This document shows positions 4,557 through 62,828 of a stretch of DNA of 64,000 bases, piece after piece. The translations under genes were made by a program, and so were the position numbers. The first letter of the stretch is position 1, and each line of letters begins with the position of its first letter. Source of the stretch: an uncultured Thermodesulfobacteriota bacterium (GTDB lineage: Bacteria > Desulfobacterota > WTBG01 > CAIYCZ01); NCBI GenBank assembly GCA_964594075.1, contig CAZQKW010000004.1, positions 38,171 to 102,170 of the forward strand. The letters run 5' to 3'. The notes beneath the pieces were generated by a model that was given only the letters and a program-made list of their open reading frames with translations, did no database searches and was not told the origin of the DNA.

Positions 4557-4595
4557 CCTCCCTTTCCAACAATCTCGATCACAATGCCTGTTTTG

Positions 4596-32106: not shown

Positions 32107-32127
32107 GACCGTATTGTTTTAACTTGT

Positions 32128-33105: not shown

Positions 33106-33131
33106 AAATTTCCTTAATATGAGACGACACC

Positions 33132-34472: not shown

Positions 34473-34504
34473 AAAAACTCCTATGCTATTATGTATGTAT
34501 AATG

Positions 34505-35677: not shown

Positions 35678-35696
35678 GGTATCTCTGCTTAATGAA

Positions 35697-36950: not shown

Positions 36951-36986
36951 TTACATCACCTCGTTTCTAAACTTGAACGGTTTTTA

Positions 36987-37529: not shown

Positions 37530-37806
37530 ATCCCAATGTCCCCATGCGTTGAGCGCCGCTCGTCTGGCCTGCTTTTCCCGTAAAGCTTTTCACATATTGC
37601 CCCAACGCCGCTTCTGCAGCCTGACCGTGAAGCCCTTTGACCGGCTCAAGATTTTTGGAAGCATCGGGGTTGAATGTCTGCCCCTGTTTTTGTGCATAGT
37701 ATGCAGTGCCCCAGTTATCCGCCACCTTTGACGGGGTTGCACACGCGCCGCACACCAATGCTGCTATGGTTAACAAAATCACCGACAAAACAATGCGTGA
37801 TGTATT
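37507..37806 (-). CDS. small exported protein in tad locus
   Basis: Signal peptide MNTSRIVLSVILLTIAALVCGACA. No recognisable family. Confidence 0.4.
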   Translation of the reverse strand, partial: NTSRIVLSVILLTIAALVCGACATPSKVADNWGTAYYAQKQGQTFNPDASKNLEPVKGLHGQAAEAALGQYVKSFTGKAGQTSGAQRMGTLGFGIYGQQ

Positions 37807-37890
37807 CATGGCTGCCACTCCTTATATTTTTATTATTATATTTATTATTGAGGTAATTGCAAAAGTATTCAAAAATGGGATTACAGAGTT

Positions 37891-37956
37891 TCGCTCGCAA
37901 TGACAAATGGCGTCTGTGCGGTCATTGCGAGGAGAATAGCGACGAAGCAATCTCAA
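37891..37956. repeat. REP-like element, degenerate inverted pair (within tad locus intergenic)
   Basis: TCGCTCGCAATGAC ... GTCATTGCGAGGAGAATAGCGACGAAGCAATCTCAA. Confidence 0.45.
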
Positions 37957-38058
37957 TAAATGAAACTTTTGCAATTGGCTCTCATTGTATAAGTATTATC
38001 GTTTAATTCAAGCGTTTCTTTACCTGTCTCTCTTGCCGCTGTCTCGTGACTCATCCTT

Positions 38059-39486
38059 TTAGTTCATCGGCACAGCGTGCCCGAACTCACCGTCAAGCCT
38101 GCCTTTGGTATTTGAAGAAGGCGGGCAGGCTCTTCCTTCCAGCATCCCCAGCACATAGAATTCAAAATCATCCGGCTCCACAAAAAAATCTGTCGGCAAC
38201 GGCTGTTTGGCAGTGTCAAGTGGCTTTACCAGGCGCGGGGTAACAATAATTACCAACTCAGTTTCATTGCGTCTGAAATTTTGGCTGCGGAACAGTTGCC
38301 CGAGAATCGGTATGTCTCCCAACGCAGGGTATTTTGCAGCGTTTTCCCGCATATTTTCAGACAAAAGTCCGGCTATCGCAAAGCTCTGACCGTCGGCAAG
38401 TTCAACATTTGTTGAAGCGCTGCGGGTAGTTAGCCCTGGAACCACAAACCCCTGAATTGCCACTGCAGTTGAGTAATCCAGCTCAGACACCGACGGGGTT
38501 ACTTTAATATTTATTTTATTTTCGCTTAATACCGTCGGCGTGAACGCAAGCTCTACACCGTATTTCTTATATTCAATACCCACGGTTCCCAGTCCCTGTG
38601 GAATCGGCACCGGGTATTCGCCGCCGGCTAAAAACTGGGCATTTTGCCCGCTCAAAGCGATGAGCGTCGGCTCTGCCAGAACCTTTATCATTCCGTCGTC
38701 CCGCAAGGCATCAATGAGGGTAGTCCAAGAGGAACTGCCCCGGTTGAAACGGAATAACAGATTCGATGCAGGGGACGCAAAAAAACTGAGTAAACCGCTT
38801 CTCGCATCTGGCAGATTCCCTTCGCCTTCCTGAGCTAAGGTGCCGATCTGATTAAGCAATCCGATACCAAACTCTTCCTTATTGCGGTAGATGATATTGA
38901 AACCAAGTTCACGGGTGAGCCGTTTTGACATTTCCGCGACCCGCACCTCAAGCATAACCTCCTGCACACCCGAAACTTCCACCTGATTTCTGATCTTTCC
39001 TTTTGGGGCATACGCCTCGGCAACCGATAAAATCTGCGCAAGATTTGCCGCGCTGGAAACTCTGCCGGCAAGTATGATGGAATCATCGCCGGAGATGATC
39101 CGCAGCTCCTGTTCCTCGGGAAGTACCTGATTGAGCTTTTGTTTTAGCTTGGTGATGTCATAGCCCACGTGCAGGTCATAAATTTCGGTAATTTTGTTCC
39201 CTTCCCAGATGGTGAGATTACTGGTGCCGGGCGATTTGCCAGTGAGGTAAATCTCGCGCGGCGAAATCATCAAAAAGTCGGCGATTTTAGGTTCTGCAAT
39301 GGAAATACGGCTTATCGCCCGCGTGCTGCGAATGGTTACCGAACTGCCCACTGCCACTTCCAGCGTTTTATGCTGACGCGTGTCAACGGTGATTGCAGCG
39401 TCTAACAGCGCGGGCATACACAAGGCAAGTATAATCAAAACACAAAGCGTCCATTTCTTTATGGCAGATACAGGTATTGTGCTCAT
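38059..39486 (-). CDS. cpaC: Tad secretin CpaC/RcpA (BON + secretin domains)
   Basis: Signal peptide and C-terminal secretin signature GQSFAIAGLL...PILGQLFRS...ELVIIVTPRLV. Confidence 0.9.
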   Translation of the reverse strand: MSTIPVSAIKKWTLCVLIILALCMPALLDAAITVDTRQHKTLEVAVGSSVTIRSTRAISRISIAEPKIADFLMISPREIYLTGKSPGTSNLTIWEGNKITEIYDLHVGYDITKLKQKLNQVLPEEQELRIISGDDSIILAGRVSSAANLAQILSVAEAYAPKGKIRNQVEVSGVQEVMLEVRVAEMSKRLTRELGFNIIYRNKEEFGIGLLNQIGTLAQEGEGNLPDARSGLLSFFASPASNLLFRFNRGSSSWTTLIDALRDDGMIKVLAEPTLIALSGQNAQFLAGGEYPVPIPQGLGTVGIEYKKYGVELAFTPTVLSENKINIKVTPSVSELDYSTAVAIQGFVVPGLTTRSASTNVELADGQSFAIAGLLSENMRENAAKYPALGDIPILGQLFRSQNFRRNETELVIIVTPRLVKPLDTAKQPLPTDFFVEPDDFEFYVLGMLEGRACPPSSNTKGRLDGEFGHAVPMN

Positions 39487-39503
39487 GCAAACCCCTCCTT
39501 ATT

Positions 39504-40346
39504 TTAGAATCCCTGAGTGGTTACTTTGGTGCCTCTTATTTCTTTGACGGTTATTGGCTCGCGGCGGCTGAGTACCTGAGCCTGTTTTTCCTGACCTTTT
39601 ATTTTTACGGTTTTACCGGTATATGATTCAAGAGTTTCCGGAACCGTAGCTCCGTCGGTCAAGACAATCTCCGTATCCATGGCATTGCGCAACGCCAACT
39701 GCAGTTTGCCCTCGGTGGCGGCAAGGGCAAGTTTCTCGCCTTCTTCCGGGGTTACCTCAAGGGTAAAGACATCCACCGGTGAGGGCTCGCCTTTTTCATT
39801 CTTTTGAATTTCAGCACCGGTTGCCAGCACCAGGATATTTTCAAGAATTACTTTGGTAACCTGCTTCTTGTCGCGCGGATCTTCTATGCTGACCAGCACA
39901 TCAACGATATTTCCGGGCCTGATGAGACCAGCAAGCCCGATAACTTTATCACCCTTGACCGCGATTGCCCGTTTGCCGGTTTTTACCACCGCCGCCATGC
40001 CGCCGGCAGTAACGGTGGCAGGGGCAAGCTTGGTCTCCAGCACCGGTTCGTTGGCTTTTAACGGCTGAATGGTAACTCTGCCTTCAAGTTGATTGAGGTC
40101 GCTGAAATAACCGGGAGGAAGCGTTTCCTTGAGGTAGGGCACAAGGCGCAACTGCTCTTTAGTTATCTTGGTGCCCCAGGGCAAATCAATTGCTGCCGAA
40201 GCGATCATGACCGTTTCTTTCTCCGGGGCAACCTTGGGAGGCCCGATTTGCCGTTTTACCCAGTTGTAGGTAAAAACGCCTCCGATGAAGGCTATAAACA
40301 CAGCGAGAATGATTGGTAAAATTGCTTTCCAGATTCCCATAATCAA
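39504..40346 (-). CDS. cpaB: Flp pilus assembly protein CpaB/RcpC (SAF domain)
   Basis: N-terminal TM helix, SAF-like domain, 280 aa. Confidence 0.85.
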   Translation of the reverse strand: MIMGIWKAILPIILAVFIAFIGGVFTYNWVKRQIGPPKVAPEKETVMIASAAIDLPWGTKITKEQLRLVPYLKETLPPGYFSDLNQLEGRVTIQPLKANEPVLETKLAPATVTAGGMAAVVKTGKRAIAVKGDKVIGLAGLIRPGNIVDVLVSIEDPRDKKQVTKVILENILVLATGAEIQKNEKGEPSPVDVFTLEVTPEEGEKLALAATEGKLQLALRNAMDTEIVLTDGATVPETLESYTGKTVKIKGQEKQAQVLSRREPITVKEIRGTKVTTQGF

Positions 40347-40448
40347 CCCCCTTTGCTAAAGTTGATAATGTTACAAAACGCAACTCTACAAAACGCAACC
40401 CTAATTTATGTTATGTTAAAAACATATCTGTTAAACGCTTCGCCCCCT

Positions 40449-40474
40449 AGATTCTTCGCTGCGCTCAGAATGAC
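40449..40474. repeat. REP-like 26-bp element
   Basis: AGATTCTTCGCTGCGCTCAGAATGAC. Confidence 0.65.
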
Positions 40475-40495
40475 AGCGAGAGGCATGCTTCACCA

Positions 40496-41053
40496 TTAAA
40501 TGGGCAACTTATACTGTGCCGCTTTAAGCCCCATCGTTAGCAACGCGCCCAGCGCAATGGCAACCCCGTAACACAGCTTGGGCGGCTTTTCGTCTTCCGC
40601 TGCCGGTATCGGAATGAAGTTGCCGGTCCATACCAGTGTTTTTACGGTTGCGGTAATCCGTTTAAGCACCTTTTTACTTGCTTGAAAACGCACCAGTATA
40701 ATGAAGACGGCATAGATGCCACCGATAATTCCAGTAAACAAGAAGGCGTTGAGGACATTTTTGGGTCCGAGCACCGCGCCTACTGCTCCCATGAGCTTGA
40801 CATCTCCAGCACCCATAGCTCCAAACACATAAAAAATACCCAAGGTTATCAAACCCGTTAGCAAACCGACGACGCTAAAAAACAAACCATGTATTCCGTT
40901 ATAAAAAAAATTGTAGGTGAATGCAATAATAATGGTAGGATATGTAATAAGGTTGGGTATTTTTCTAATAAAGAGATCTATGATTGCGGCAACTATTAAG
41001 ATACCGGCCAAAGCATACATTAAATAACAATCCATTGCAGACTGTTCAGCCAT
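40496..41053 (-). CDS. tadV: prepilin peptidase TadV/CpaA (A24 family)
   Basis: IIDLFIRKIPN Asp motif, GAMGAGDVKLMG motif, multi-TM. Confidence 0.8.
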   Translation of the reverse strand: MAEQSAMDCYLMYALAGILIVAAIIDLFIRKIPNLITYPTIIIAFTYNFFYNGIHGLFFSVVGLLTGLITLGIFYVFGAMGAGDVKLMGAVGAVLGPKNVLNAFLFTGIIGGIYAVFIILVRFQASKKVLKRITATVKTLVWTGNFIPIPAAEDEKPPKLCYGVAIALGALLTMGLKAAQYKLPI

Positions 41054-42364: not shown

Positions 42365-43855
42365 TTAATCAAAGGAACGGCTAAAAAGGGCGGCACCAGA
42401 ATCACTATATATTTGTTTCCAGCCAAATTCTTTATTCAAGGCGCCGGACAGTTTAGACCCATTTTTTATAAGTATCAAGTTGGGCGGATACCTGGTTAGA
42501 AAGTCCTTCCAGCCTCGCCGGCAAAAAATGAAATCAAAGTATTCTCTGGTTATGCGTTCCGGGTAAACCTGTTCATATCGACCATCAAGAGAAACACGAC
42601 AAAGGGGGTGCAGTTCCCAAATTAGATATTCTCCCCAATGAAACTCAGTTAATATGTTTCCGGACAACTCCTGTTCTTTGATATAATTAACTGCACCTGA
42701 TGGATAAAAAACGCTAAATTTTTTATCTTTATTTGGCTGCGAAGGAAGTGTCAGGCTCATGGGGTTCTGATTTATAATTTTTACCGTCAAAATGAGCGCC
42801 AACACTACAGCGCAAGCTGTGGGGGTTTTCCAGCCGATGCGATCCTGAATCCCTCTAATTAACACATCCGATTTCATTGCATTTAAAAAGTCTGACAGCC
42901 AGACCGGCATATAGGCACCGGCAAGCAACAGAAAAAAACAAATATGCCGTTGCTGTTTCAGCCCTAAAAAGAGGGTTAAACCTAAAACCAGATAGACTGT
43001 CAGTTCGCGCGGTTTACGCCATAATAATAGCAGGACTAAAAAAATAATTATGAACAGTATATAAATAATCGCGAAATTGTTTAATACGCCGTATTTGTAT
43101 CCCGCGTAAACAGAGAACCATTCGATTAGCTCTGGACGGGGCATTGGCAAAGATCGAGCAAAAAAACGCCAGTACTCAATGCCGTATGGATTTATAAGCG
43201 TTGCAAGAGATGAAAAGACGAGAACCATGACATACGGGACAAACGGTTTGCGGGCTATTGCTTCCCCTGCTGCATATAAAGCAAGCAGTCCAAGCCCAAC
43301 CAAGAAGCCGCCGTGCAGGTTACACCACAATATCTGAGTGGGAATTATCCACCATAAAATCTGCCATCGTCTTGTTGTTCGGGTAGTTTCCAACAAATAA
43401 AGCGTCACGGCAAAGAAAAAAAAAGTAAAAATCTGTGCTCTGACTGGACTGTACCCAAAATCAAGTATGCCGCCGATTGCAATTAAAATAAGTACGGCTG
43501 AATAGTAGTTGGCACCGCGTCTTACCGCAGTTAAAAATATAAACCCCATGGTTGCCAGCCCAATGCTGTATTTAAGCAACTGCAAGGCGGCAGCCCCAAA
43601 TTTCTGATACAGCGGGAAAAAAAGCACCCCGGTAAGCCACTCATGAAAAACCCACGTATCATGCGTCGGAAGGTAGGCAAAAATATCTTTATATGGGAAC
43701 TTGCCGGTTTCCCAGAACAGCCTTCCAAACGTCAGGTAGCCCCACAAGTCTACATCTGCGACTGTGTAAGTCAGAACATAGGCAGCAAACACCAGATACA
43801 ATAACGAGAGAACGGTTTTTTTAACTAAATCTATGAAGTTATTTCCAACCTGCAT
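42365..43855 (-). CDS. polytopic membrane protein, putative GT-C-type glycosyltransferase (family uncertain)
   Basis: About 12 TM helices, then a roughly 150-aa C-terminal soluble domain. Confidence 0.45.
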   Translation of the reverse strand: MQVGNNFIDLVKKTVLSLLYLVFAAYVLTYTVADVDLWGYLTFGRLFWETGKFPYKDIFAYLPTHDTWVFHEWLTGVLFFPLYQKFGAAALQLLKYSIGLATMGFIFLTAVRRGANYYSAVLILIAIGGILDFGYSPVRAQIFTFFFFAVTLYLLETTRTTRRWQILWWIIPTQILWCNLHGGFLVGLGLLALYAAGEAIARKPFVPYVMVLVFSSLATLINPYGIEYWRFFARSLPMPRPELIEWFSVYAGYKYGVLNNFAIIYILFIIIFLVLLLLWRKPRELTVYLVLGLTLFLGLKQQRHICFFLLLAGAYMPVWLSDFLNAMKSDVLIRGIQDRIGWKTPTACAVVLALILTVKIINQNPMSLTLPSQPNKDKKFSVFYPSGAVNYIKEQELSGNILTEFHWGEYLIWELHPLCRVSLDGRYEQVYPERITREYFDFIFCRRGWKDFLTRYPPNLILIKNGSKLSGALNKEFGWKQIYSDSGAALFSRSFD

Positions 43856-43903
43856 TTTCCTAAATTACCGGAAGAGTTTTACTGCGCATCAAAACAGACC
43901 GTG

Positions 43904-45559
43904 TTATGTCTCTATCTTATAAAGGAAGACTGCCATATACCAAATTCCCTGGCCAAACCTGTTACTACTCCCCCGAAAGGTGAAAGGCCAGCTCTTTTCT
44001 AGTCGCAGATAATTGGCAGTGCCACTGCCAAATAGCTTGTCCGCAAGCTGTTTCAGTTCTTTGTCCTCGCCATTCTCAATAAGGCCATGATTTACCAAAT
44101 AGGCAATACCCTGCTTTTTCAGCAGCTCTCCGGCGGTTCCATGTTTTAGGGCATTCGCATAAACTATGGAGTTTACCACCCCATCAATATTGATTATTTT
44201 CTGGGAGGTAAAATAGCCAATGACGCCTGCATCCCAGGATCCAAGAATGGCATTTGGGGACAGATTTTTTGAAATCCACTCGCCGGCTTTTTGATTAGTA
44301 ATGCACATGGAAAGGAATCGTGGATCAACCACACTCGAATTCATTGCAATCACACACAGAGCTAATGGCGCTGAGATGACCAATTTAACTTTTATCAGCG
44401 AAGATTTATGTGGTTGATACCGCAAATCATCCTTTCTGGCAGTGTTAAAGATATCAATGACAGCACATAAAAAGATGAGAAAAACATAGAGCACAAGGGG
44501 GCCAAAATACCAAAGCTGCGGAAAGACTTGCATAATGGTGTAATACACAATAATCAGACAGCAAAACACTGCAAACCACCACGTGCGATTGATAAATTGT
44601 CTTAGACAGGGGAAGTTCGTTTTATTCTTCTTTGCCGGCAGATTAAACCTTGAAGCATGTTGTGTAGGCAATTTGCCCCAGTTTTTAAAAAGCCTTCCGA
44701 TTATGCCGGAAAGGAGCAGGCCGACTGCAAGAACACCTGTCCTGCTGAGCGTTAAAGGAATGCGTTTTATTTCACCGCTAACCTGCCACGGACTTCCAAA
44801 GGTATTATAATTAAACAGAATAAATAGAACAACAGCAGCCACAGGCAGGATAAAAAGCTCTGCAAGGCGACCCAATGATTTGAACCCTAATGAGACTGCC
44901 TCAAGCAGACAACAGATTCCTAAACAAATTAATAATAATACGGCATCGGTCCGCGATAGAAAGCAAAGCATCCCTATTCCGCCCACTAGTATCCGCCAGC
45001 GTGGAGAAGTATCAGACAAAAACCTACTCTGTCTTATTATTGATTGGAATAGCAGAAAAGTATAACAGAGGGCATAAGCCGCTGATTCCAACCCATTTAC
45101 AAATGTTCTTAAAAATAAAGGGCTGGCAGCTAACATTGCAAACAAAACCCAGATTGTTCTAAATGCATTTTTTGAGCGCGATGCATATGCTGACGGATCT
45201 ATTTCAGGTTGGCTCTGTGAAATTATGATATTAATGATATGCCCCATTATCAAACAGACGCATAGCCACAGAATAATTTGGCCGGACAACAAAATGCGTA
45301 CTGCGGTCAGCCCATCGAAACCGAACCAGTAAACAGGAATACATATAAGCAACCAGAGAGGATGAAATCCATTGGTCGGATTTATTCTATCAAAAGTAAA
45401 GCCATATCCCTGCGCTACATTGCGGGCAATTTCAAAATAATAAAAAGCATCATCAAAACAGAGAACATACGGTGTATATTCCCAGAGCCAGATCGCCAAT
45501 AGCCATCCACAATAAAGTGAAAGTAAAATTAAATAAAATTTCTTAGTAAAGACTGTCAT
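43904..45559 (-). CDS. polytopic membrane protein, putative GT-C-type glycosyltransferase (paralogous architecture to upstream gene)
   Basis: N-terminal DDAFYYFEIARNVAQGYGFTFD-like first-loop motif as in the ArnT/PMT/PglL class, many TM helices, and a C-terminal soluble domain. Confidence 0.5.
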   Translation of the reverse strand: MTVFTKKFYLILLSLYCGWLLAIWLWEYTPYVLCFDDAFYYFEIARNVAQGYGFTFDRINPTNGFHPLWLLICIPVYWFGFDGLTAVRILLSGQIILWLCVCLIMGHIINIIISQSQPEIDPSAYASRSKNAFRTIWVLFAMLAASPLFLRTFVNGLESAAYALCYTFLLFQSIIRQSRFLSDTSPRWRILVGGIGMLCFLSRTDAVLLLICLGICCLLEAVSLGFKSLGRLAELFILPVAAVVLFILFNYNTFGSPWQVSGEIKRIPLTLSRTGVLAVGLLLSGIIGRLFKNWGKLPTQHASRFNLPAKKNKTNFPCLRQFINRTWWFAVFCCLIIVYYTIMQVFPQLWYFGPLVLYVFLIFLCAVIDIFNTARKDDLRYQPHKSSLIKVKLVISAPLALCVIAMNSSVVDPRFLSMCITNQKAGEWISKNLSPNAILGSWDAGVIGYFTSQKIINIDGVVNSIVYANALKHGTAGELLKKQGIAYLVNHGLIENGEDKELKQLADKLFGSGTANYLRLEKSWPFTFRGSSNRFGQGIWYMAVFLYKIET

Positions 45560-45713
45560 AAATTATAGTGAACTATTTATTTAATCATCCAGAAATAAAA
45601 GGCAGAACCATTGCTGACTCTGCCTCGTTCTTTTTTTGTCCTACCTCTTTACCTTTTAATCAATCCACATTTTTCGACCTACCTTACCAAAGCACGCATA
45701 ACGATTACCCTGT

Positions 45714-47105
45714 TTAACACTCCGGTTCACACTGGGGCTGGCCGCAGCCGCCGCAACCGGGGTCAACGTCGCACACATCGCCAACGCCGTCGTTATCCGC
45801 ATCCATTTGTTGCGCATTGCAGTTATCCGGGCAATTGTCGCAGCTATCGGGCACGCCGTCACCGTCCCGGTCTGGAAACACACAGTCACCCAGAGCAAAC
45901 GGGGTGGCAGGAGGAATAATAACATCCACCGGAAGGGAACTGTCAATTATTGTATTATTGCCAAGCTGCCCTTCAGAATTATCGCCCCAGGTTTTCATGG
46001 TGCAGCCCGCAGGAATCGCCGCAGTATGAAAATTTCCGGCGCCAATGCTGATGGCAGCGCCGATGTTCAAAACCGCTACCGGCACTTTTCTCAAGGTCTG
46101 GGTGCCGTCGCCAAGCTGGCCATCGGAATTCAGACCCCAGGCCCATACCGTGCAGTCGCTCCTGAGCGCTGCTGAATGATACTTTCCCGCAGCGACCGCC
46201 TCGACATTACTTAACGTGCTGACTTTTACTGGCATGGTTTTATTGGTGAGGGAATTGATGCCAAGCTGCCCGCTTTCATTGAGCCCCCATGCCCAGACGG
46301 TTTTGTCAGCCTTGATAGCCAGATTATGCCACCCGCCGGCTGCAAGCGCCACAACGCCGGTAAAGCCACCGCCGCCGGCATCAAGGACCTGCACCGGAGC
46401 TAATCGGGTAGTGGTGGTATTGTCTCCAAGCTGTCCGTATTTATTAACACCCCATGCCCAGACCGTGCCGTCGCTTTTAAGCGCAATGCTGTGAAATGTG
46501 CCGGCACCTATTGCTACGACCCCGCTCAGCCCGCTCACCTGAGTTGCTTTGGTTTTGTCTCGGGTTGACCCGATGCCAAGCTGCCCATAATTATTGCGTC
46601 CCCACGCCCAAACCGTGCCGTCACTCTTTAATGCCAGCGAGTGATATTCGCCGCCTGCGATCGCAACCACCCCGCTCAAACTGCTTACGACCACCGGTGT
46701 TGTTTTGTCTTTTGTGGTGCCGTCGCCAAGCTGCCCATAAAGATTTGATCCCCATGCGCGGACGGTGCCATCGCTTTTAAGCGCCAGCGTGTGAAATGAA
46801 CCGGCAGCAACTGCGACAACACTGGTCAAACCGCTCACCTGCACGGGTGTCAGTTTGTCTATGACTGTCCCGTCGCCAAGCTGGCCGGAGGCATTTGCAC
46901 CCCACGCCCAGACCGTGCCGTCGCTTTTAATGCTTACTGTGTGCCATTCCCCGCCTTCCATCATGGGCTCTGACTGCGCCCATGCCGGGCCGGCTGCAAA
47001 AATGCCCAGCACGAAATAAAAGGACATGATTATGCAGCACATTGTTTTTAGTTGAATGGACCTGCTATGTTTCATAAACGGTGCCCTCCTTTGAAAGGGG
47101 TACAT
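45714..47105 (-). CDS. secreted RCC1-repeat beta-propeller protein with C-terminal thrombospondin type-3 Ca-binding repeats
   Basis: Seven units of AWGxNxYGQLGDGT (RCC1). C-terminus DRDGDGVPDSCDNCPDNCNAQQMDADNDGVGDVCD (TSP3-like). Has a signal peptide. Confidence 0.8.
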   Translation of the reverse strand: MYPFQRRAPFMKHSRSIQLKTMCCIIMSFYFVLGIFAAGPAWAQSEPMMEGGEWHTVSIKSDGTVWAWGANASGQLGDGTVIDKLTPVQVSGLTSVVAVAAGSFHTLALKSDGTVRAWGSNLYGQLGDGTTKDKTTPVVVSSLSGVVAIAGGEYHSLALKSDGTVWAWGRNNYGQLGIGSTRDKTKATQVSGLSGVVAIGAGTFHSIALKSDGTVWAWGVNKYGQLGDNTTTTRLAPVQVLDAGGGGFTGVVALAAGGWHNLAIKADKTVWAWGLNESGQLGINSLTNKTMPVKVSTLSNVEAVAAGKYHSAALRSDCTVWAWGLNSDGQLGDGTQTLRKVPVAVLNIGAAISIGAGNFHTAAIPAGCTMKTWGDNSEGQLGNNTIIDSSLPVDVIIPPATPFALGDCVFPDRDGDGVPDSCDNCPDNCNAQQMDADNDGVGDVCDVDPGCGGCGQPQCEPEC

Positions 47106-55184: not shown

Positions 55185-55217
55185 GCGCCCGAATGCACGT
55201 TTGGGCGCTTTTTTATT
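55185..55217 (+). terminator. intrinsic terminator after csp
   Basis: GCGCCCGAATGCACGTTTGGGCGC followed by TTTTTTATT. Confidence 0.6.
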
Positions 55218-55559: not shown

Positions 55560-55803
55560 TTCTGTTTTGATCTTCCCCATTATTCCCCGTGCGTTTCGGT
55601 GTTTTCGTGCAGGTTACCCGAATTGCAGGGCTAATTTTTGCGGAACGTCCCGCCCAAAAAAATTCCTTGACAGAATTATTTAAAAAAATTAATATTCCGT
55701 TATCGGAATTTCCGTAATTGAAAATATTGCGTTCCAGGACGTTTCGGCAAACAGTATTTTTGTTTAGCATCACTCCCAAAATTTTTCCTTAACGGGCTGT
55801 GCC

Positions 55804-56256
55804 ATGACCAAAAAAGTTGACGCGCTTGACACCAAGCTGTTGATTGTCAGAGATTTCATTGATGAGTTTTACAATAAAACCATATTTCAAAAAGGGAGCA
55901 GCAATGCCGCATCGGATTTGACGCCTTCTGTCATAAAAGCCCTGTTTGCCTTTTCTGATGAAAACCAAGCCTATCCCATCGGCGAGCTGGGAAGATATGC
56001 GCGGGTCAAAAGTTCTACCATTACCGATATGGTTGACCGTCTGGAACGTGACGGGATTGCGGAACGGTTTAAGGAAGACGGCGACCGGCGCGTGATCAAG
56101 GTGCGGCTCACTGCAAAAGGCAAAAAGCTGCGCCGAGAATTCAGCCAGAAACGGCGGCAGGAGTTCGCAGCGCTCTTTGCAAAATTGGACCCAAGCGAAC
56201 AGGAGCAGCTTCTCCATCATCTGGAAGGCGCGTATCAGATATTAAAAAAGATTTAA
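55804..56256 (+). CDS. MarR-family transcriptional regulator
   Basis: Winged-helix segment ITDMVDRLERDGIAERFKEDGDRRVIKVRLTAKGKKL. Confidence 0.8.
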   Translation: MTKKVDALDTKLLIVRDFIDEFYNKTIFQKGSSNAASDLTPSVIKALFAFSDENQAYPIGELGRYARVKSSTITDMVDRLERDGIAERFKEDGDRRVIKVRLTAKGKKLRREFSQKRRQEFAALFAKLDPSEQEQLLHHLEGAYQILKKI

Positions 56257-56289
56257 CGTGATACTGCTGGATAAAAGGAAAGGTAAACA

Positions 56290-57312
56290 ATGGACATAGA
56301 TTTGACACAGACCGGATTCTGGGCGCTCATGGTGGCGACCTTTACCCTTGCCGCAACGCATACCGTTTCTCCCGATCACTGGTTCCCCTTCATTATGGTC
56401 GGCAGGGCAAACAAATGGAAACTGTCCTGGGTGCTGCTGCTGGCACTTCTGGCCGGAATAGGGCATGTGGGAACCTCGGTTGCTATTGGCTTGATAGGCG
56501 TATTTGCTGAAAAGGGCATGTCAAAAAGTGTCGCGGAATTTCTTGAAAATGCCACCCCGCTGCTGCTGATAATTTTTGGGTTTGGGTATGCCGGATACGC
56601 GTTTTACAAGCAACGGGTTGGTGCCCACGGCCATGCGCACGGCATACCGATTCTAAACAAATGGCTGGGCATTGATCCCCATGCCTATGCTCTGCCGCAT
56701 CATGAACACGGCACCCACGATCACAGCCAGGATCAAGTGGCGGGCATTCACATCGGCAGGGTCAATTTATATATCCACAATATGGAGTTGCACATAACGG
56801 TAGCCCATGATGATCATATCCATGGCTATGATGCGACTACTGAAGAAGACCACAACCATAAGCATTATCACGCAGATATTTTGCATGAACATAAGCATGT
56901 GCATACCCTCAAGGGACTGGTTCATGACCATGGCGCTGAGCACGCTCATCCGCAAGGGGAGCATCAGCCTCACGTCCATACGCAAGACCTGCACCATACC
57001 CGCCATGAAACTGCAGAACAACAGCTTAAGCATAAACGGGCGGGCTGGGGGCTGGTGGCGATCCTGGGATTAACACCCTGCATTGCATTGCTTCCCCTCA
57101 CGTTTGCCGCGGTGAAATACGGGTCTCTGGCTGTCATTCTGGTAAACATATCGTTTGCCGTGGGCACGTTGGGCACTATCCTGCTGTTTACCTGGCTCGG
57201 GTATCTGGGATTGTCCTGGATTAAACTTGAATTTTTTGAAGAATACGGCGATGTGATTGCCGGCGTCATTATCGGCCTGCTGGGAGTTGCAACAAAAGTT
57301 TTTGAGTTGTGA
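56290..57312 (+). CDS. nickel/cobalt transporter, NicO/NiCoT-RcnA family with His-rich loop
   Basis: N-terminal HTVSPDH (HX4DH signature), a central loop with more than 30 His, and 6-8 TM helices. Confidence 0.7.
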   Translation: MDIDLTQTGFWALMVATFTLAATHTVSPDHWFPFIMVGRANKWKLSWVLLLALLAGIGHVGTSVAIGLIGVFAEKGMSKSVAEFLENATPLLLIIFGFGYAGYAFYKQRVGAHGHAHGIPILNKWLGIDPHAYALPHHEHGTHDHSQDQVAGIHIGRVNLYIHNMELHITVAHDDHIHGYDATTEEDHNHKHYHADILHEHKHVHTLKGLVHDHGAEHAHPQGEHQPHVHTQDLHHTRHETAEQQLKHKRAGWGLVAILGLTPCIALLPLTFAAVKYGSLAVILVNISFAVGTLGTILLFTWLGYLGLSWIKLEFFEEYGDVIAGVIIGLLGVATKVFEL

Positions 57313-57355
57313 ACTGACAGGCGTATCACCCTATTAAAACAGAGAGGAAGATGGT

Positions 57356-58111
57356 ATGAGCGACATAGTTACCGATCTTGGCTTTGACTCCAAAAGCCTG
57401 TGGCAGCCAAAGGGATTTGATCCCCATCCCTTTCCTGAACGCACCTGGCCGCTGCTCAAGGAATTAAACCTGAAACGGCTGACCGAGGTGGAGGGCGAGG
57501 ATTTAACCCCCATCCAGGGAATGATCAAGCAGCCCATGGCAGAGGGCACCTTTAGAAATTTTTGCAACGAGAAGATTGAAAAGCTTGCCCTCATGTGGCT
57601 CCTGATCTCAAAGAGCATTGCCGGCGGGAGCTGGGTGGGCTGGCCCAATGATGGGTATGACTTCCCGGCGCTAATTATTGCCTGGGAAGAATCAAAAAAA
57701 CGGCTGCACATTATTATTGACGTCATGCCGATTGTGGACTGCGTGGAATATGAGTGGTACCGGGAGAAATACCTTGACGGCATTGAACCGGTCTATAACG
57801 AATATAAGGATTTAATCGGCCCCAATTCCACCTATCGCTGGTTCCGCGCCATGCAGGGTCCCTATCATATTTTTGACAGCCCGAATGAAAAGCGGGAGCG
57901 CGCCCTGCAGTGCGAAATAGAGTATATTAAATACTGGGTTGATGTGGTAAAAAAAGCCGAATCCGTCGCCGATGCCGCCTATCGAGAATACGCGATAAGG
58001 CGCAAGCGGATTTTAATGACGCAGTTGCGGCAGCGCGACCCGCTGGGTTCGGTTCTGATGCGAACTCTGGGACCGGAACTGGGCAAGAAGAGCGTGGTGG
58101 GATATACATAA
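57356..58111 (+). CDS. ferredoxin-dependent bilin reductase (FDBR)-like protein, divergent paralog A
   Basis: EKIEKLALMW (compare the FDBR FRKxHLE motif) and GWPNDGYDFPALII (compare PcyA FPEPLYGLPLFGCD). About 250 aa. The canonical catalytic His/Glu/Asp are not conserved. Confidence 0.5.
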   Translation: MSDIVTDLGFDSKSLWQPKGFDPHPFPERTWPLLKELNLKRLTEVEGEDLTPIQGMIKQPMAEGTFRNFCNEKIEKLALMWLLISKSIAGGSWVGWPNDGYDFPALIIAWEESKKRLHIIIDVMPIVDCVEYEWYREKYLDGIEPVYNEYKDLIGPNSTYRWFRAMQGPYHIFDSPNEKRERALQCEIEYIKYWVDVVKKAESVADAAYREYAIRRKRILMTQLRQRDPLGSVLMRTLGPELGKKSVVGYT

Positions 58112-58165
58112 AAAGAGGAAAAAGTTAAAGGAAAAAAGGTTAAAAGGAAAAAAGGAGTTATAGCA

Positions 58166-58582
58166 ATGCCATCCATGATAGAGATTATGCGAAAAGGGGC
58201 TGATCTGGTCAACAATGACGAAGAGTTCAAAGCCCAGATGGTTGAATTAGACGGCGACATCATTTTCTGGCGGTTTGAAGACGATCAGCCGGCGGTAACC
58301 ACCCGGCTTGACAAAGGCGTCCTGGTAGTGGAAGAGGGAGAACATCCTGGTTCACAGGTCGGCATGAAGCTCAAGGCCAAAGTGCTTCTGGATGTGATAG
58401 ATAATTCTCTTGAGGCAAAAATGATGTACACCTTTACCGAACTGGTTAAGGGCGACGTTGAACGTGCCCGCCATCATGTGTTTGCCCTCGTGCCATACAT
58501 CTACGGGATGCAGGATTACTACGACAGCGATGAAGGATTCAGAAGCATGGTGGTGGATAAAAAGCGGCAGCTCGGAGGATAA
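58166..58582 (+). CDS. hypothetical protein (138 aa), possibly small-ligand-binding (SCP2-like?)
   Basis: No clear motif. It sits inside the FDBR-like/ferredoxin cluster and its stop overlaps the ferredoxin start. Confidence 0.4.
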   Translation: MPSMIEIMRKGADLVNNDEEFKAQMVELDGDIIFWRFEDDQPAVTTRLDKGVLVVEEGEHPGSQVGMKLKAKVLLDVIDNSLEAKMMYTFTELVKGDVERARHHVFALVPYIYGMQDYYDSDEGFRSMVVDKKRQLGG

Positions 58583-58815
58583 TGGCTGTGGATGTTCATG
58601 AGCACAGCATTGTTATTGATGAAGATAAATGCGTCGGCTGCGGAATCTGTATCGAGTATTGTCATGTAGATGCGATCCGCATCAATGAAGAACGCAACGT
58701 GGTAGAAGTGGTTGACCTTGAGAGCTGCATTGAATGCCATAGCTGTCAGCAGCGGTGCCCGCAAAAAGCCATTATGGTCTACCCGCAGATTGAAGAAGTC
58801 CTGCCGGAACTTTAA
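58582..58815 (+). CDS. 2[4Fe-4S] ferredoxin
   Basis: CVGCGICIEYC and CIECHSCQQRCP. Confidence 0.8.
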   Translation: MAVDVHEHSIVIDEDKCVGCGICIEYCHVDAIRINEERNVVEVVDLESCIECHSCQQRCPQKAIMVYPQIEEVLPEL

Positions 58816-58827
58816 GGACAGGGGCGC

Positions 58828-59067
58828 GTGCACATGGAGATTAAATTCATCGTAGATACAGAGCGCTGTCTGGGAGCAGATGCCTGCGGCAACCTTTGCG
58901 CCCGCATCTGTCCGCCGGATATTATTGACTATGCTGATGAAAACGGAAAGAAAGTCCCCCGGGTAAATGATATGGAGCTGTGCATGAAAGATCACGGATG
59001 CCAGAACAACTGTCCGGTGAAAGCGATTACCATTCTTCCGCCGCAGGAAGAAGGACGGAATTTTTAA
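58828..59067 (+). CDS. ferredoxin-like Fe-S protein with atypical Cys spacing
   Basis: CLGADACGNLCARICPP and CMKDHGCQNNCP. Confidence 0.6.
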   Translation: MHMEIKFIVDTERCLGADACGNLCARICPPDIIDYADENGKKVPRVNDMELCMKDHGCQNNCPVKAITILPPQEEGRNF

Positions 59068-59099
59068 CAACTTATCCCATTTAAAACAGGAGGCACACC

Positions 59100-59879
59100 A
59101 TGAAGGAATATCATCTGGAGAAAGAGGTGGGGTTCAGGTGCGACACCTGGCCTGCCAAGAATGTTCCCGAGATTAGGCCGTTTCCCGAGGAATGCTGGGA
59201 AATCCTGCGCACTCTTGAGGTAAAGCCGTTGCGCGGTATGTATCAGGGCTATAATATGGATTTGCTGCTGGAGAATCTTGATTCGCCGATGGCAAAAGGC
59301 GCGGTGCGGGTGTTTGAGTCGGAAAAAATAGAAAAAGTCTGCCTCTGGTGGCAGGTGCTTTCAGGGCGTTCTATCTCCGGCGCGGTCATTGGATTCCCCC
59401 GCGATGATTACGACTTTCCGGTAATGCTTATTGACTGGGATGAAGGACGCGGCCCGGGCCACGGCATGGTTGACCATATGCCCCTGTGCGATCTGGTGCT
59501 CCATGAGGACTACCGCATCAAGTACCTTGATAAACTGGATAATACGTTCCGGGAATATTATGATATAATCGGTCCGCCGTCGCTGCACGTCTGGTTTAGA
59601 ACGCTCACCGGACCGTATTACAGTTTTTTCAGAACTCAGGCGGGCGGCACGCCGGAGTATCGCCAGCGCATTTTGAATCTGCCGCTCCGCTACCTTCAGA
59701 TGTGGGCGGATACGGTTAAGGAAGCGCAGCCGGTCACCGATCCGGCGCACCGTGAATACTGCATCAAGCGCAAACGCGTGCTTCAGGAATGGCTGTTTGT
59801 CCGTGACCCGGTAACCTCGGTGATGCTGCGCTGTTATGGAAAGGAAATCGGCTCGCTGGTAATGAAGGGTCTGTCATAG
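59100..59879 (+). CDS. ferredoxin-dependent bilin reductase (FDBR)-like protein, divergent paralog B
   Basis: VRVFESEKIEKVCLWW and GFPRDDYDFPVMLIDWDEG. Co-linear with paralog A (EYxDxIGP, WFR, GPY, REY.IxRKR). Confidence 0.5.
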   Translation: MKEYHLEKEVGFRCDTWPAKNVPEIRPFPEECWEILRTLEVKPLRGMYQGYNMDLLLENLDSPMAKGAVRVFESEKIEKVCLWWQVLSGRSISGAVIGFPRDDYDFPVMLIDWDEGRGPGHGMVDHMPLCDLVLHEDYRIKYLDKLDNTFREYYDIIGPPSLHVWFRTLTGPYYSFFRTQAGGTPEYRQRILNLPLRYLQMWADTVKEAQPVTDPAHREYCIKRKRVLQEWLFVRDPVTSVMLRCYGKEIGSLVMKGLS

Positions 59880-59938
59880 AAAACGCGCTTACAGGTGAAC
59901 ACTATGAGCGCGCAGCGTGCCTTTTCCAGGAGAACCCC

Positions 59939-60217
59939 ATGCCCAAAATAACCGAAGACCAAATTGTTCAGATTGAAATTAAAATTGATGAAGAAAAATG
60001 TGTCGGCTGCGGAACCTGCATCTCGGTGTGCCCGGTTAATCTGCTTGAATTAAAGGTGGTGGGCACCAAGAAAAAAAGTTGTGCGCCGGATCAGAGTTTC
60101 TGCCTGAAATGCCATATGTGCGAATTCCACTGTGGATATGAAGCCATTAAAGTGTTTCCGCCGTTTGAAGGGCAGCAGCCCACCGATCAGGCAAAAGTGC
60201 CGATGCGCCATCGCTAA
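59939..60217 (+). CDS. 2[4Fe-4S] ferredoxin
   Basis: CVGCGTCISVCP and CLKCHMCEFHC. Confidence 0.8.
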   Translation: MPKITEDQIVQIEIKIDEEKCVGCGTCISVCPVNLLELKVVGTKKKSCAPDQSFCLKCHMCEFHCGYEAIKVFPPFEGQQPTDQAKVPMRHR

Positions 60218-60295
60218 CCGAACCCGTGACCTCCTTGACCGCTGATTACAACCCGCCATGTTTCCGCAGCGTGCGCCGAGGATAAAAGGATAGCG

Positions 60296-61729
60296 ATGCG
60301 CGTTCTGCTCATTCAGCCGCCGATGTTTCATCAGCAGGTGCAGCTTTCCCCCAATCTGGGGCTTGCCTCCATTGCTGCGGTGCTTGAACAGGACGGTGTG
60401 CAGGTAAGGGTAGTGGATGCGGCGGCAGAAGGGCTATCGTATGACCGTATTCTGGAAAAGATTCGCGCGTTCCAACCGCACATCATTGGCGCCGGCGGGC
60501 AGACGCCGGTCAGCCACCGCGCGCGCATCATTTTTCAGCGAACCAAACGGGAAATCAGCCGCGACATCATAACAATTGCCGGCGGGCCGCACTTCAGCTT
60601 CACCGACCGGGAATCGTTACAGGAATGCCAAGACCTTGATATTGTGGTGCGCGGCGAAGGCGAAGCGACCATCAGCCATCTCTGTAAAACGCTTGAGTCC
60701 GGCGCCCCCCTTGCCACGGTTCAGGGCATAACCTTTCGGGACGAAACCGGCTCAATAGTGCGCAATCCCGACCGCGAGCCAATTGCCGATATTGACTCCC
60801 TGCCCTTCCCTGCCTGGCATCTGTTCCCCGTAGAAAAATACCACTGGGTGGGAAACCGGCTGCTGGCAACCTCTTCCTCGCGGGGTTGCCCGTTCAACTG
60901 CCCCTACTGCATCACTTGGAAAGTGCATAAGGGCGTGCGGCAGAGGAAACCGGCGCGGATTGTTGAAGAAATGGTCTGGGTAAAAAAGAACTTTCAACAC
61001 GACACGTTTTTCTTTCAGGACGATGCCTCATTTCTGTCCCGCGAGCAGATGGAAGGATTTCTGGACGAGCTGGAAAAATGCGGAGAGAAGCTCTATTGGT
61101 ATTATGAGACCAGGGAAGATGTTTTTCTGGGCTATCGCGATCTGTGGCAACGCATGAAGCGCAACGGCCTGTTCAAAATTGTTTTCGGCCTGGAGACGCC
61201 AGACCCGGAGATGCGGAAAAAATTCGGCAAACAGCCGTTTGACAGCCGGGCCGTCGTGCAGATGCTTGATATTCTGGAACATGAGCTTGATATTATGGTT
61301 TCCGTGTATCTGCTCTTTGGTCTTCCGGAGGATACCGCGGAGTCCTTGAACGCAATTCTTGAATATGGCAAATATCTGTATCCGGACCATTGTTCTTTTA
61401 TCGTCGGGTCCATGGCTACGCCGTTTCCGGGAACCGATATGTATGAAGAACTCAAAGCCCGGGATATGCTGACCAGCTATAACTGGAAAGACTACGGGTT
61501 TGGCAGGTCGGTCATCAAAACGGCGGTTTCGCCGGAAAAGCTCCAGGCGGTTTTTAAGGGTTTCTGGATAAAAACCTATGTGCGGCCGAAAGCATTTTTA
61601 AAACAGTTCCAGTTTTTCATCTCCGGCAACCGCTTCCGCAGGGCGATGGCCAAGCAGTATATTAAAATGGCGATAGAGATGGCTTCCGATGTCAAGAAAA
61701 TGAGCGGCGAAGCCGATGAGGAATTTTAA
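60296..61729 (+). CDS. B12-binding domain radical SAM enzyme (class B; BchE/methyltransferase-like)
   Basis: N-terminal cobalamin-binding Rossmann segment (RVLLIQPP...VVDAA) and radical SAM motif SSRGCPFNCPYC (CxxxCxxC). Confidence 0.85.
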   Translation: MRVLLIQPPMFHQQVQLSPNLGLASIAAVLEQDGVQVRVVDAAAEGLSYDRILEKIRAFQPHIIGAGGQTPVSHRARIIFQRTKREISRDIITIAGGPHFSFTDRESLQECQDLDIVVRGEGEATISHLCKTLESGAPLATVQGITFRDETGSIVRNPDREPIADIDSLPFPAWHLFPVEKYHWVGNRLLATSSSRGCPFNCPYCITWKVHKGVRQRKPARIVEEMVWVKKNFQHDTFFFQDDASFLSREQMEGFLDELEKCGEKLYWYYETREDVFLGYRDLWQRMKRNGLFKIVFGLETPDPEMRKKFGKQPFDSRAVVQMLDILEHELDIMVSVYLLFGLPEDTAESLNAILEYGKYLYPDHCSFIVGSMATPFPGTDMYEELKARDMLTSYNWKDYGFGRSVIKTAVSPEKLQAVFKGFWIKTYVRPKAFLKQFQFFISGNRFRRAMAKQYIKMAIEMASDVKKMSGEADEEF

Positions 61730-61817: not shown

Positions 61818-62828
61818 ATGCCATTAGATGTTTATGCCTTTGGCAGCGCGCTGGTGGACATTCAGCTTGCTGTTGATGACACCCTGCTGGCAGAACTTGA
61901 GCTGCAGCGCGGGAATATGTATCTGACCGATCGGGTTCGCCAGGAACAGGTCTTGGAAAAAATTCTTGGCGGCCGCATAACCGACCTCGGCGCTCTGGGT
62001 GATCGGGTGAACCTTGCAGCCGGCGGCAGTGCCGCAAATACGGTTTACGGCATTGCCCAGCTTGGCGGGACAGCGGCGCTCTGCGGCAAGGTAGCGTCTG
62101 ATCCCTTTGGCCATTTCTACATTAGAGATATTCAGCAGGGCGGCGTGCTGTTCAATCAAAAAATGGTGGACGGCATGACCGGCACCTGTATCGTTCTCAT
62201 TTCCGACGACGCGCAGCGCACCATGCTTACCTGTCTTGCGGTATCCAGCGAGATAACGTACGAGGATCTCAATGAGGATTATTTAAAAAACAGCACCTAC
62301 CTGTATATTGAAGGCTATCTTTTTGACAGCGCGGTTGCAACCGAGACGCTGCTGCGCGCGATTGCCACGGCTAAAAAACACCAGGTAAACGTTGCGCTCT
62401 CAGCTTCAGATTCATTTTGTATAGAGCGGCACAAGGACCAGTTTCTGCACCTGGTAAAAAATGATGTTGACCTTTTATTTGCCAACGCCCAGGAAGCGCA
62501 GGCGCTTACCGACACCGACAGCCTTGAGGAAGCATGCCGCGTGCTGCCCCGCTGGTGCCGGCAGTGCGCCATCACTGATGGAGCCCGCGGCTCAACCCTC
62601 CTGTTTAACGGCGTGCGCCTTAAAATCAATCCCTACCCGGTCATCGCCATAGATACCACCGGCGCCGGAGACGCCTATGCTGCCGGACTGCTCTTTGGCC
62701 TTACCAATGGCTATTCACTGGAACAGAGCGGCAAAATCGCCAGCTTCTTTTCCTCGCGGGTGGTATTCCAGTTGGGCCCGCGGTTTGCCGGCGATATAAG
62801 ACAAGAAATAAAAGAACTGGAGCTCTAA
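61818..62828 (+). CDS. PfkB-family carbohydrate/nucleoside kinase
   Basis: GGSAANT and C-terminal DTTGAGDAYAAG anion-hole motif. Confidence 0.8.
   Translation: MPLDVYAFGSALVDIQLAVDDTLLAELELQRGNMYLTDRVRQEQVLEKILGGRITDLGALGDRVNLAAGGSAANTVYGIAQLGGTAALCGKVASDPFGHFYIRDIQQGGVLFNQKMVDGMTGTCIVLISDDAQRTMLTCLAVSSEITYEDLNEDYLKNSTYLYIEGYLFDSAVATETLLRAIATAKKHQVNVALSASDSFCIERHKDQFLHLVKNDVDLLFANAQEAQALTDTDSLEEACRVLPRWCRQCAITDGARGSTLLFNGVRLKINPYPVIAIDTTGAGDAYAAGLLFGLTNGYSLEQSGKIASFFSSRVVFQLGPRFAGDIRQEIKELEL

Follow-up and report, generated by a model that had tools for sequence, protein, structure and literature searches.

The window analyzed here, a stretch of 64,000 nucleotides from an uncultured Thermodesulfobacteriota bacterium, contains at positions 55804–61729 of the + strand a block of nine closely spaced genes. 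Two of these encode paralogs, designated A and B, that belong, as we conclude with high confidence, to the family of ferredoxin-dependent bilin reductases (FDBRs), in which they form a divergent and uncharacterized clade. FDBRs are cofactor-less enzymes that reduce bound substrates, and they are the makers of light-harvesting and light-sensing bilins, downstream of the O2-requiring heme oxygenase. The paralogs of this clade are always found as a pair, together with a small partner protein (p138) and with bacterial 2x[4Fe-4S] ferredoxins, and in the window they are followed by a cobalamin-binding radical S-adenosylmethionine (SAM) enzyme. The explanation that we favor, to which we give about an even chance, is that the locus encodes an oxygen-independent, ferredoxin-driven module that processes a tetrapyrrole by reduction and methylation.

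Paralogs A and B are 40% identical (E=1e-61). The gathering score of the Pfam family PF05996 (Fe_bilin_red) is 31 bits; B passes it with 31.9 bits and A just misses it with 30.6 bits, and a homologue from one of the more distant loci described below (type II, L007:8219-8986) reaches 58 bits. Among the sequences of solved structures, B alone matches PebB (6e-5) and HY2 (1.5e-3), and a profile of 29 family members gives values of 2e-26 for PebB, 2e-22 for HY2, and about 1e-11 for PcyA, PebA, and RCCR, with identities to the solved FDBRs of only 15–19%. Neither paralog matches the Pfam RCC_reductase family. A single-sequence AlphaFold model of B (pLDDT 41) was discarded in favor of one based on an alignment of 44 sequences, which is confident (pLDDT 84, pTM 0.86) and comprises an alpha/beta/alpha sandwich with a central antiparallel sheet. 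The top Foldseek matches of this model are nearly all FDBR and RCCR chains, the best being GtPEBB (E=3.5e-11, TM 0.73); the exception near the top is a PcyA-related subunit of an algal FtsHi motor complex. Because the Pfam, profile, AlphaFold, and Foldseek results agree, the homology to FDBRs is real; all strong structural neighbors are tetrapyrrole enzymes, and both the pair of FDBR-like paralogs and the fold that the original prediction had read from two sequence motifs are upheld. The motif strings themselves had been swapped between the genes: VFESEKIEKVCLWW and GFPRDDYDFPVMLID belong to the second gene (59100), and FCNEKIEKLALMW and GWPNDGYDFPALIIA belong to the first (57356).

Active-site residues were compared in an alignment of 46 family open reading frames (ORFs) to the family profile. 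The ORFs came from the window and from 33 related loci, and the catalytic positions were mapped through the profile matches to solved structures and Table 2 of PMC13446030. At the position of the acidic proton donor PcyA-Asp105 (PebS-Asp105), B has an Asp (Asp112), whereas A has Ala and so lacks such a donor; the assignment is invariant across the orthologues that share the gene order of the window (type I). A, B, and every type-I orthologue carry an R-D-P motif at the position of HY2-Asp256, PebS-Asp206, and GtPEBB-Asp219. With Asp at both positions, B shares its Asp pair with PebS, Pre-2, and algal HY2. The Glu76-His88-Asp105 triad of PcyA is not found, since the His88 position is Val in B and Leu in A and the Glu76 position is non-acidic, but His88 and Glu76 are specific to PcyA rather than family-wide and are missing from most other non-PcyA FDBRs too. 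The earlier description of both active sites as non-canonical thus holds for the first Asp of A and not for B, which has both Asp residues, or for the second Asp of A, which is retained. The clade has near-invariant residues of its own, namely K76, K79, E115, D125, D131, Y138, R139, Y142, W165, R167, and Y198. Of these, E115 sits three residues past the first Asp and is specific to the clade. It persists even where a paralog has neither Asp, and it would be premature for that reason to call those paralogs inactive. Some relatives carry Glu at the PcyA-Asp105 position.

The features of the locus and its immediate surroundings are as follows.

55667..55695, + strand: promoter-like site TTGACA-17-TAATAT, about 110 nt 5' of the MarR gene (consensus scan, weak evidence)
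55804..56256, + strand: MarR-family regulator, first gene of the block (Pfam MarR, E=1.3e-8)
56290..57312, + strand: 340-residue membrane protein with an HX4DH motif and a long His-rich loop, a putative divalent-metal (Ni/Co/Zn-type) transporter
57356..58111, + strand: FDBR-like paralog A, 251 residues (PF05996, E=3.5e-7, 30.6 bits)
58166..58582, + strand: p138, a 138-residue orphan partner protein, the stop codon of which overlaps the start of the next gene
58582..58815, + strand: ferredoxin of the 2x[4Fe-4S] type, 77 residues (Fer4, E=2.8e-14)
58828..59067, + strand: atypical ferredoxin-like protein, 79 residues (weak Fer4_7 and Fer4 matches)
59100..59879, + strand: FDBR-like paralog B, 259 residues (PF05996, 31.9 bits), with D112 and D236
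59939..60217, + strand: ferredoxin of the 2x[4Fe-4S] type, 92 residues, of which about 23 form an insertion (Fer4, E=3e-13)
60296..61729, + strand: class-B (cobalamin-binding) radical SAM enzyme, 477 residues (B12-binding, E=2.4e-19; Radical_SAM, E=3.7e-16)
61818..62828, + strand: PfkB-family kinase, adjacent and co-directional (PfkB, E=3.5e-47)

The gaps within the nine-gene block range from a 1-base overlap to 79 nt, and every ORF of the original prediction is in place, with the MarR gene upstream as it had claimed. A strong terminator-like hairpin (55185–55208) lies at the end of the preceding cold-shock gene. On the + strand, the scan gave no convincing terminator-like site before position 62951, only two weak 5-pair matches inside genes. 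No cobalamin riboswitch or other RNA element was found in the region; the sole Rfam match in the window is the full-length tmRNA gene at 6994–7353 (+ strand; RF00023, 215 bits). As part of the favored explanation, the nine genes from MarR to the radical SAM enzyme would form one operon. The PfkB kinase is not a conserved member of the unit: it lies 3' of the radical SAM gene only in contigs of the same species (L034 and L035) and is missing from the other related loci. A 124-kb JGI metagenome contig matches the window with 99.9% identity, and the nearest genomes are bins of uncultured Thermodesulfobacteriota ("delta proteobacterium") that come from lake and soil sediments, a lineage in keeping with the anaerobic, non-phototrophic host that had been predicted.

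A word-indexed search with B alone gave 5 proteins and understated the family, which was corrected by profile searches and by an exhaustive search of 1.84 billion representative proteins (E<=1e-3); the latter found only 65 relatives. One protein that appeared to be a fusion (P0015, 1567 residues with 24 "stretches") was rejected as a low-complexity repeat artifact. The conserved core consists of two FDBR-like paralogs, a p138 homologue, and a small ferredoxin, is kept in distant relatives including a Dehalococcoidia bin (L028), and occurs in at least three arrangements. (i) Type I has the order A-p138-Fd-Fd-B-Fd-radical SAM (where Fd is a ferredoxin) and is present in at least 12 Thermodesulfobacteriota species-level genome bins, so that the combination of FDBR-like, ferredoxin, and B12-radical SAM genes on which the original prediction was built recurs across genomes. 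(ii) Type II (L007, L010, L012, L037, and L038) has, in this order, a 255-residue paralog, a 242-residue paralog, p135, and a ferredoxin; the longer paralog has Glu and DP at the catalytic positions, and the shorter has Arg at the first and no DP. Most type II loci add a geranylgeranyl-reductase (GGR)-family flavoenzyme, several VAO-type FAD oxidases, and BNR, MMPL, DUF1302, and DUF1329 transport genes. (iii) In type III (L026-L028, which include the Dehalococcoidia bin), the core elements are mixed with MFS transporters, PNPOx-like proteins, and a DUF4198 protein.

Several individual loci have further features. L012:1-18726 and L037:14480-20729 contain VAO-type FAD_binding_4 paralogs, as many as eight, that alternate with ORFs of about 140 residues, and these VAO-rich type II arrays look like a large anaerobic oxidative or hydroxylating pathway; L012 also holds CCG-domain proteins and a UbiU-like U32 protein. 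HemG-like Flavodoxin_5 and PNPOx-like proteins occur among L038, L010, L027, and L028 and count, with the genes described below, among the neighbors of tetrapyrrole type. L038:1-8318 adds a third FDBR-like gene (269 residues), several PNPOx-like proteins, an FMN reductase, and a 364-residue Flavodoxin_5 (HemG-like) protein, with a TetR regulator on the opposite strand. L026 (positions 4455-5405 and 6683-7606) is a second FDBR-like locus in the same genome bin as the type-I locus L019; the DUF4198 protein, which resembles the periplasmic Ni/Co-uptake component, lies between its two FDBR-like genes, and the locus also encodes a 307-residue protein resembling sulfite reductase subunit C (siroheme/Fe-S type).

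Ferredoxin genes adjoin the FDBR-like genes in every related locus, and in two natural fusions (P0035 and P0049) an N-terminal 2x[4Fe-4S] ferredoxin domain is joined to the FDBR-like protein. The adjacency and the fusions bear out the earlier claim that the ferredoxins are dedicated to the paralogs, and A and B are probably, judging from these sequences, a ferredoxin-driven reductase. All three ferredoxin genes previously noted in the window have Fer4 matches and cysteine motifs. The first (58582-58815) and third (59939-60217) have two CxxCxxCxxxC motifs each, and the third is 72–95% identical in orthologous loci. The middle protein (58828-59067) is atypical, with 7 Cys residues in a CX5CX3CX3CP and a CxxDxxCxxxCP motif, Asp replacing the second Cys of the latter, a pattern that recalls Asp-ligated or 3Fe-4S ferredoxins. 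It is present in all type-I loci at 63–80% identity, and both unusual motifs are conserved in the orthologues.

The remaining core component, p138, is conserved with A, B, and the ferredoxin. Homologues with 25–30% identity lie 3' of the FDBR-like pair in the distant loci L007, L010, L012, L037, and L038 and between the two paralogs in L028. A p138 profile retrieves 428 unnamed 90% clusters from sediment and groundwater metagenomes, mostly of type I, which implies that the module is common in sediment metagenomes. Four p138 homologues have sub-threshold matches in the same register to SCP2 (PF02036; E 0.004–0.13), and a C-terminal extension of the FDBR-like relative P0029 has a weak one (E 0.16); p138 of the window has just a weak Alkyl_sulf_C match. 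The P0029 extension gave no match to the p138 HMM as a fused p138. A comparison of p138 by hhalign with an approximate human SCP2 sequence was not significant (E=0.1, probability 0.6%), and p138 has no significant match to sequences in the PDB. Because the SCP2 matches are sub-threshold and the hhalign and PDB comparisons negative, an SCP2-like ligand carrier, which p138 possibly is, is a lead and not a finding.

The product of 60296-61729 has PF02310 and PF04055 domains and a CPFNCPYC motif, that is, an N-terminal B12-binding domain and a CxxxCxxC core in the class-B architecture, as predicted. The likeness to BchE that had been pointed out holds in a relative sense only. BchE (TIGR02026) is the best NCBIfam model, with 202.4 bits over a full-length alignment (1–458 of 497), but the score is far from the cut-off of 481.35 and the protein is a relative rather than an equivalog of BchE. 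The match to the ChuW/HutW model TIGR04107 is negligible (19.5 bits against a cut-off of 400), and among solved proteins its nearest relatives are the methylases CysS and TokK. The enzyme accompanies the cluster in all type-I loci whose length allows this to be seen. MetK and AhcY lie 3' of it in L001-L004, L014, and L021, and in L019 the block of radical SAM, MetK, and AhcY genes is inverted to the other side of the cluster and still adjacent. On the basis of its relatives, it is probably a methyltransferase. That it methylates the same molecule as the reductase module processes is inferred from the SAM-recycling neighbors and from the relationship to CysS and TokK, and we consider this about equally likely to be right or wrong. 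BchE is the anaerobic Mg-protoporphyrin monomethyl ester cyclase; the window enzyme has the same domain architecture, but its hosts are not phototrophs and the SAM-recycling link suggests methyl transfer, not the cyclase reaction. Precedents for C-methylation of a tetrapyrrole by an enzyme of this type are BchQ and BchR, which are cobalamin radical SAM enzymes acting on precursors of (bacterio)chlorophyll.

The 5' end of the locus is more variable. A MarR orthologue (52–78% identity) is upstream in most related bins, as found by tblastn in 9 of the 12 loci L014-L025 (in L019 only 35%), and also in L001, L031, L033, L035, and L036. A candidate identity as the bilirubin regulator BilQ was rejected, since MarR scores 34.8 bits against a cut-off of 125, no better than with other MarR models. 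The HX4DH motif of the 340-residue membrane protein reads HTVSPDH. The protein had been labeled a NiCoT-type transporter, a label backed by no Pfam or NCBIfam profile (no match at E<=1 or E<=0.01, respectively, including NiCoT/NicO). Its orthologues lie directly 5' of paralog A in L001, L014-L017, L021, L022, L033, L035, and L036. Its His-rich loop is hypervariable: window positions 56672–57028 cannot be aligned at the nucleotide level with L035, the flanks are 97–98% identical, and the protein has 340 residues in the window and 317 in L035. In front of nearly all type-I clusters stands a CPC-type heavy-metal P-type ATPase, encoded with a separate His-rich N-terminal protein, or the HX4DH protein, or both, and MarR is usually further 5' than these metal genes. 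In the near-identical strains L035 and L036 (96–98% nucleotide identity), MarR is separated from the His-rich membrane protein by a further segment of about 2.7 kb (L035:2762-5501, corresponding to window 56184-56290) that encodes a 223-residue His-rich protein and a 645-residue CPC-type heavy-metal P-type ATPase; the window strain lacks it. These heavy-metal exporters of the relatives, like p138 and the SAM-cycle genes, were omitted from the gene inventory of the original prediction.

This variation is relevant to the possibility that the locus is a neighborhood of functionally separate units, namely a MarR-controlled metal-resistance cassette, the FDBR-like/p138/ferredoxin module, and an unrelated B12-radical SAM enzyme with housekeeping SAM-cycle genes. 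The loss of the His-rich protein and ATPase from the window strain, the remainder being 96–98% identical to L035 and L036, is what such a cassette would lead one to expect, as are the type II and III cores that lack the radical SAM and metal genes and the absence of metal genes from L019. Against it, the intergenic gaps are short (34–89 nt), the scan of the + strand gave no convincing terminator-like site within the block, and paralog A is directly preceded by a metal exporter in nearly every type-I locus, including those without MarR or the HX4DH protein (L031 and L032). In addition, the radical SAM gene has stayed adjacent through the inversion in L019, a linkage that also strengthens its original assignment to the unit. 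We regard the separate-unit arrangement as improbable. A role in metal(loid) methylation was also considered and rejected: the HgcB-like ferredoxin matches are generic (34–47 bits against a cut-off of 99) and the idea leaves the FDBR-like pair unexplained.

The most familiar role for FDBR homologues would be the synthesis of a bilin pigment, in which A and B, like PebA and PebB, would reduce biliverdin IXalpha stepwise and provide a photoreceptor or a bilin-binding protein with a phytobilin, the role that pre-PcyA enzymes have in heterotrophs. B has the Asp pair of the FDBRs that reduce the A-ring, the family profile is nearest to PebB and HY2, a pair of paralogs in one operon recalls pebAB, and Pre-1 enzymes, which have Glu at the Asp105 position, do reduce biliverdin (PMC13446030). 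However, no heme oxygenase, globin (BBAG), V4R, or phytochrome/GAF protein is among the Pfam matches in the scanned parts of the window and in about 25 distinct related loci, a result for the loci and not for the whole genomes, which were not searched. Moreover, the hosts are anaerobic and heme oxygenase is O2-dependent, the donors are 4Fe-4S ferredoxins rather than plant-type 2Fe-2S proteins, and the scheme has no role for the radical SAM enzyme, the metal exporters, or p138. Bilin synthesis of this kind is accordingly the reading we consider very improbable.

The window clade differs from PebA/PebB and from the PebB/HY2 lineage in its low identity to them (within the range given above), its anaerobic and non-phototrophic hosts, and the lack of heme oxygenase at its loci; in encoding bacterial 2x[4Fe-4S] ferredoxins and an obligatory 138-residue partner; in having one paralog without the first Asp and a clade-specific invariant Glu three residues after it; and in its coupling to a B12-radical SAM enzyme and metal exporters. 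The pre-PcyA enzymes of heterotrophic bacteria (Pre-1 to Pre-3; Rockwell et al. 2023, PMC10151467; Frascogna et al. 2026, PMC13446030) are similar in that they are FDBRs of non-phototrophs, hold residues other than those of PcyA at the His88 and Glu76 positions, and have an iron-sulfur protein encoded nearby, and the Glu at the Asp105 position of some relatives of the window clade is shared with Pre-1. Their clusters contain a heme oxygenase, an Fe-S protein, two V4R proteins, and a BBAG globin or, for Pre-2, a B12-binding protein and a globin (PMC10151467). In contrast, none of heme oxygenase, V4R, and globin was found in the window or the related loci, the window clade is closer in score to PebB and HY2 than to PcyA, and the pre-PcyA clusters lack the paired paralogs, p138, the radical SAM enzyme, and the metal exporters. 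Uncharacterized FDBR/RCCR-related metagenome lineages, including Schekmanbacteria sequences, have been left unplaced (Rockwell 2023, PMC10151467; Frascogna 2026, PMC13193486); the window clade may be one of these lineages, for which the papers give no gene context or function. Full-text literature searches found no paper on a cluster of FDBR-like, ferredoxin, and B12-radical SAM genes.

Each solved protein with the FDBR fold binds a tetrapyrrole. This exclusiveness, together with the absence of heme oxygenase from the loci and the anaerobic hosts, makes a tetrapyrrole that is not made by heme oxygenase the most likely substrate. A tetrapyrrole is also favored because the invariant basic residues suit propionates, the radical SAM enzyme is nearest to BchE, and DPOR-like genes recur nearby. 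As a rough estimate, we put its likelihood slightly above even. The recurring genes are a nitrogenase-like pair that adjoins the cluster upstream in L014 (L014:659-3653) and downstream in L022 and L033 (L022:12781-15778 and L033:14028-17025). The second subunit has the C-terminal PCP_red domain of BchB and matches the BchB (166 bits) and BchZ (133 bits) models best, though far below the cut-offs; two NifH/CfbC-like genes lie upstream in L001 (L001:1-1704). The pair is, in its own right, an example of a DPOR/COR-like enzyme in non-phototrophic anaerobes.

In the favored explanation, the ferredoxins would deliver single electrons to a conjugated substrate in the FDBR-like pocket, as in FDBRs and RCCR, and the Asp pair of B would supply protons, as in PebB, HY2, and PebS. 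A, with Ala at the first position and Glu115 retained, may carry out a different step, or may hold or channel the substrate as PebA and PebB mutually do. A poorly soluble ligand could be carried or presented by p138, and the B12 radical SAM enzyme would C-methylate the same molecule, which fits the presence of MetK and AhcY beside it in several relatives. The ferredoxin-dependent reduction and methylation pathway that had been proposed is thus largely right in its core idea, and its substrate, a tetrapyrrole or another conjugated molecule, remains inferred.

The second of these substrate classes corresponds to recruitment of the FDBR fold for a lipophilic, conjugated non-tetrapyrrole (for example, an isoprenoid quinone, a carotenoid or other polyene, or a hopanoid-like lipid), with p138 as an SCP2-like lipid carrier and the radical SAM enzyme as an HpnR-like lipid C-methylase. 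The weak SCP2 matches recur in p138 homologues and in the P0029 extension, type II loci have GGR-family flavoenzymes, VAO-type FAD oxidases, a UbiU-like U32 protein, and the hydrophobic-transport genes MMPL, DUF1302, and DUF1329, and the radical SAM enzyme matches the lipid methylase models HpnJ and HpnR with 138–145 bits. The BchE model outscores both of these, however, and the SCP2 similarity is not significant. The invariant K76, K79, R139, and R167 are expected for the binding of carboxylates, the ligands of all solved proteins of this fold are tetrapyrroles, and the gene context suits phytol-tailed chlorophyll derivatives equally well. A non-tetrapyrrole substrate appears unlikely to us, although less so than bilin synthesis.

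Because divalent-metal exporters are constant at the type-I loci, salvage or breakdown of a metallo-tetrapyrrole is favored over pigment synthesis; the constancy of the exporters suggests a metal leaving a macrocycle. A specific form of this, an unrecorded O2-independent breakdown or salvage route in anoxic sediments for heme, a corrinoid, F430, or a chlorophyll derivative, is speculative, and we consider it improbable. In such a route, the cobalamin radical SAM enzyme would methylate the macrocycle and destabilize or open it, in parallel with ChuW, which is of a different enzyme class; the FDBR-like pair would reduce the linear product with electrons from the dedicated ferredoxins; p138 would shuttle the pigment; and the co-encoded exporters would pump out the freed metal. 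Like ChuW and ChuY, the module would combine an O2-independent, methyl-transferring radical SAM enzyme with a reductase that acts on a tetrapyrrole, and metal release would fit the exporters. ChuW, however, is a class-C (HemN-like) enzyme that opens the ring, whereas the window enzyme is class B with a cobalamin domain, and ChuY is an NAD(P)H-dependent Rossmann-fold reductase that acts on anaerobilin, whereas the window reductases are FDBR-like. No ChuX or HutX homologue was found.

Several observations weigh against the assignment to tetrapyrrole processing. The substrate, product, and activity assigned to the clade are all putative. The window carries no further tetrapyrrole gene in Pfam scans, and a search of it for the nitrogenase-like, MetK, AhcY, P-type ATPase, and His-rich genes of the relatives found them absent; the nitrogenase-like genes are adjacent in just 3–4 of about 15 type-I loci. 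The radical SAM enzyme, given its distance from the BchE cut-off, could have a different substrate, and its adjacency to MetK and AhcY is perhaps incidental because both are housekeeping genes. The metal genes may be a separate resistance unit, partly deleted in the window strain. Finally, the GGR-like and VAO flavoenzymes and the MMPL, DUF1302, and DUF1329 genes of type II loci fit a lipophilic substrate that is not necessarily a tetrapyrrole.

The clade is a distinct and widespread FDBR-like group in strict-anaerobe lineages, with no heme oxygenase at its loci. To our knowledge, almost nothing is known of the fate of heme, chlorophyll, corrinoids, and F430 in anoxic sediments beyond ChuW/ChuY. 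If the substrate is a tetrapyrrole, the module would expose a missing piece of anaerobic tetrapyrrole turnover, would bear on the origin of the FDBR family, and would offer a seven-gene system that can be cloned; should the breakdown route prove true, the family would include an ancient anaerobic lineage, older than heme-oxygenase-based bilin formation or independent of it. With a non-tetrapyrrole substrate, the module would be the first case of the FDBR fold acting on another class of molecule.

Elsewhere in the window, two large ORFs (496 and 551 residues) without a Pfam match adjoin a 463-residue RCC1-repeat protein at 42365–47105 (− strand). A Tad/Flp pilus assembly cluster occupies about 31159–41053 (− strand) and encodes a prepilin peptidase, RcpC/CpaB, a secretin, TadE and Tad-like proteins, a ParA-like ATPase, a T2SSE ATPase, and two T2SSF proteins, with an 896-residue TPR-LysM protein after it.

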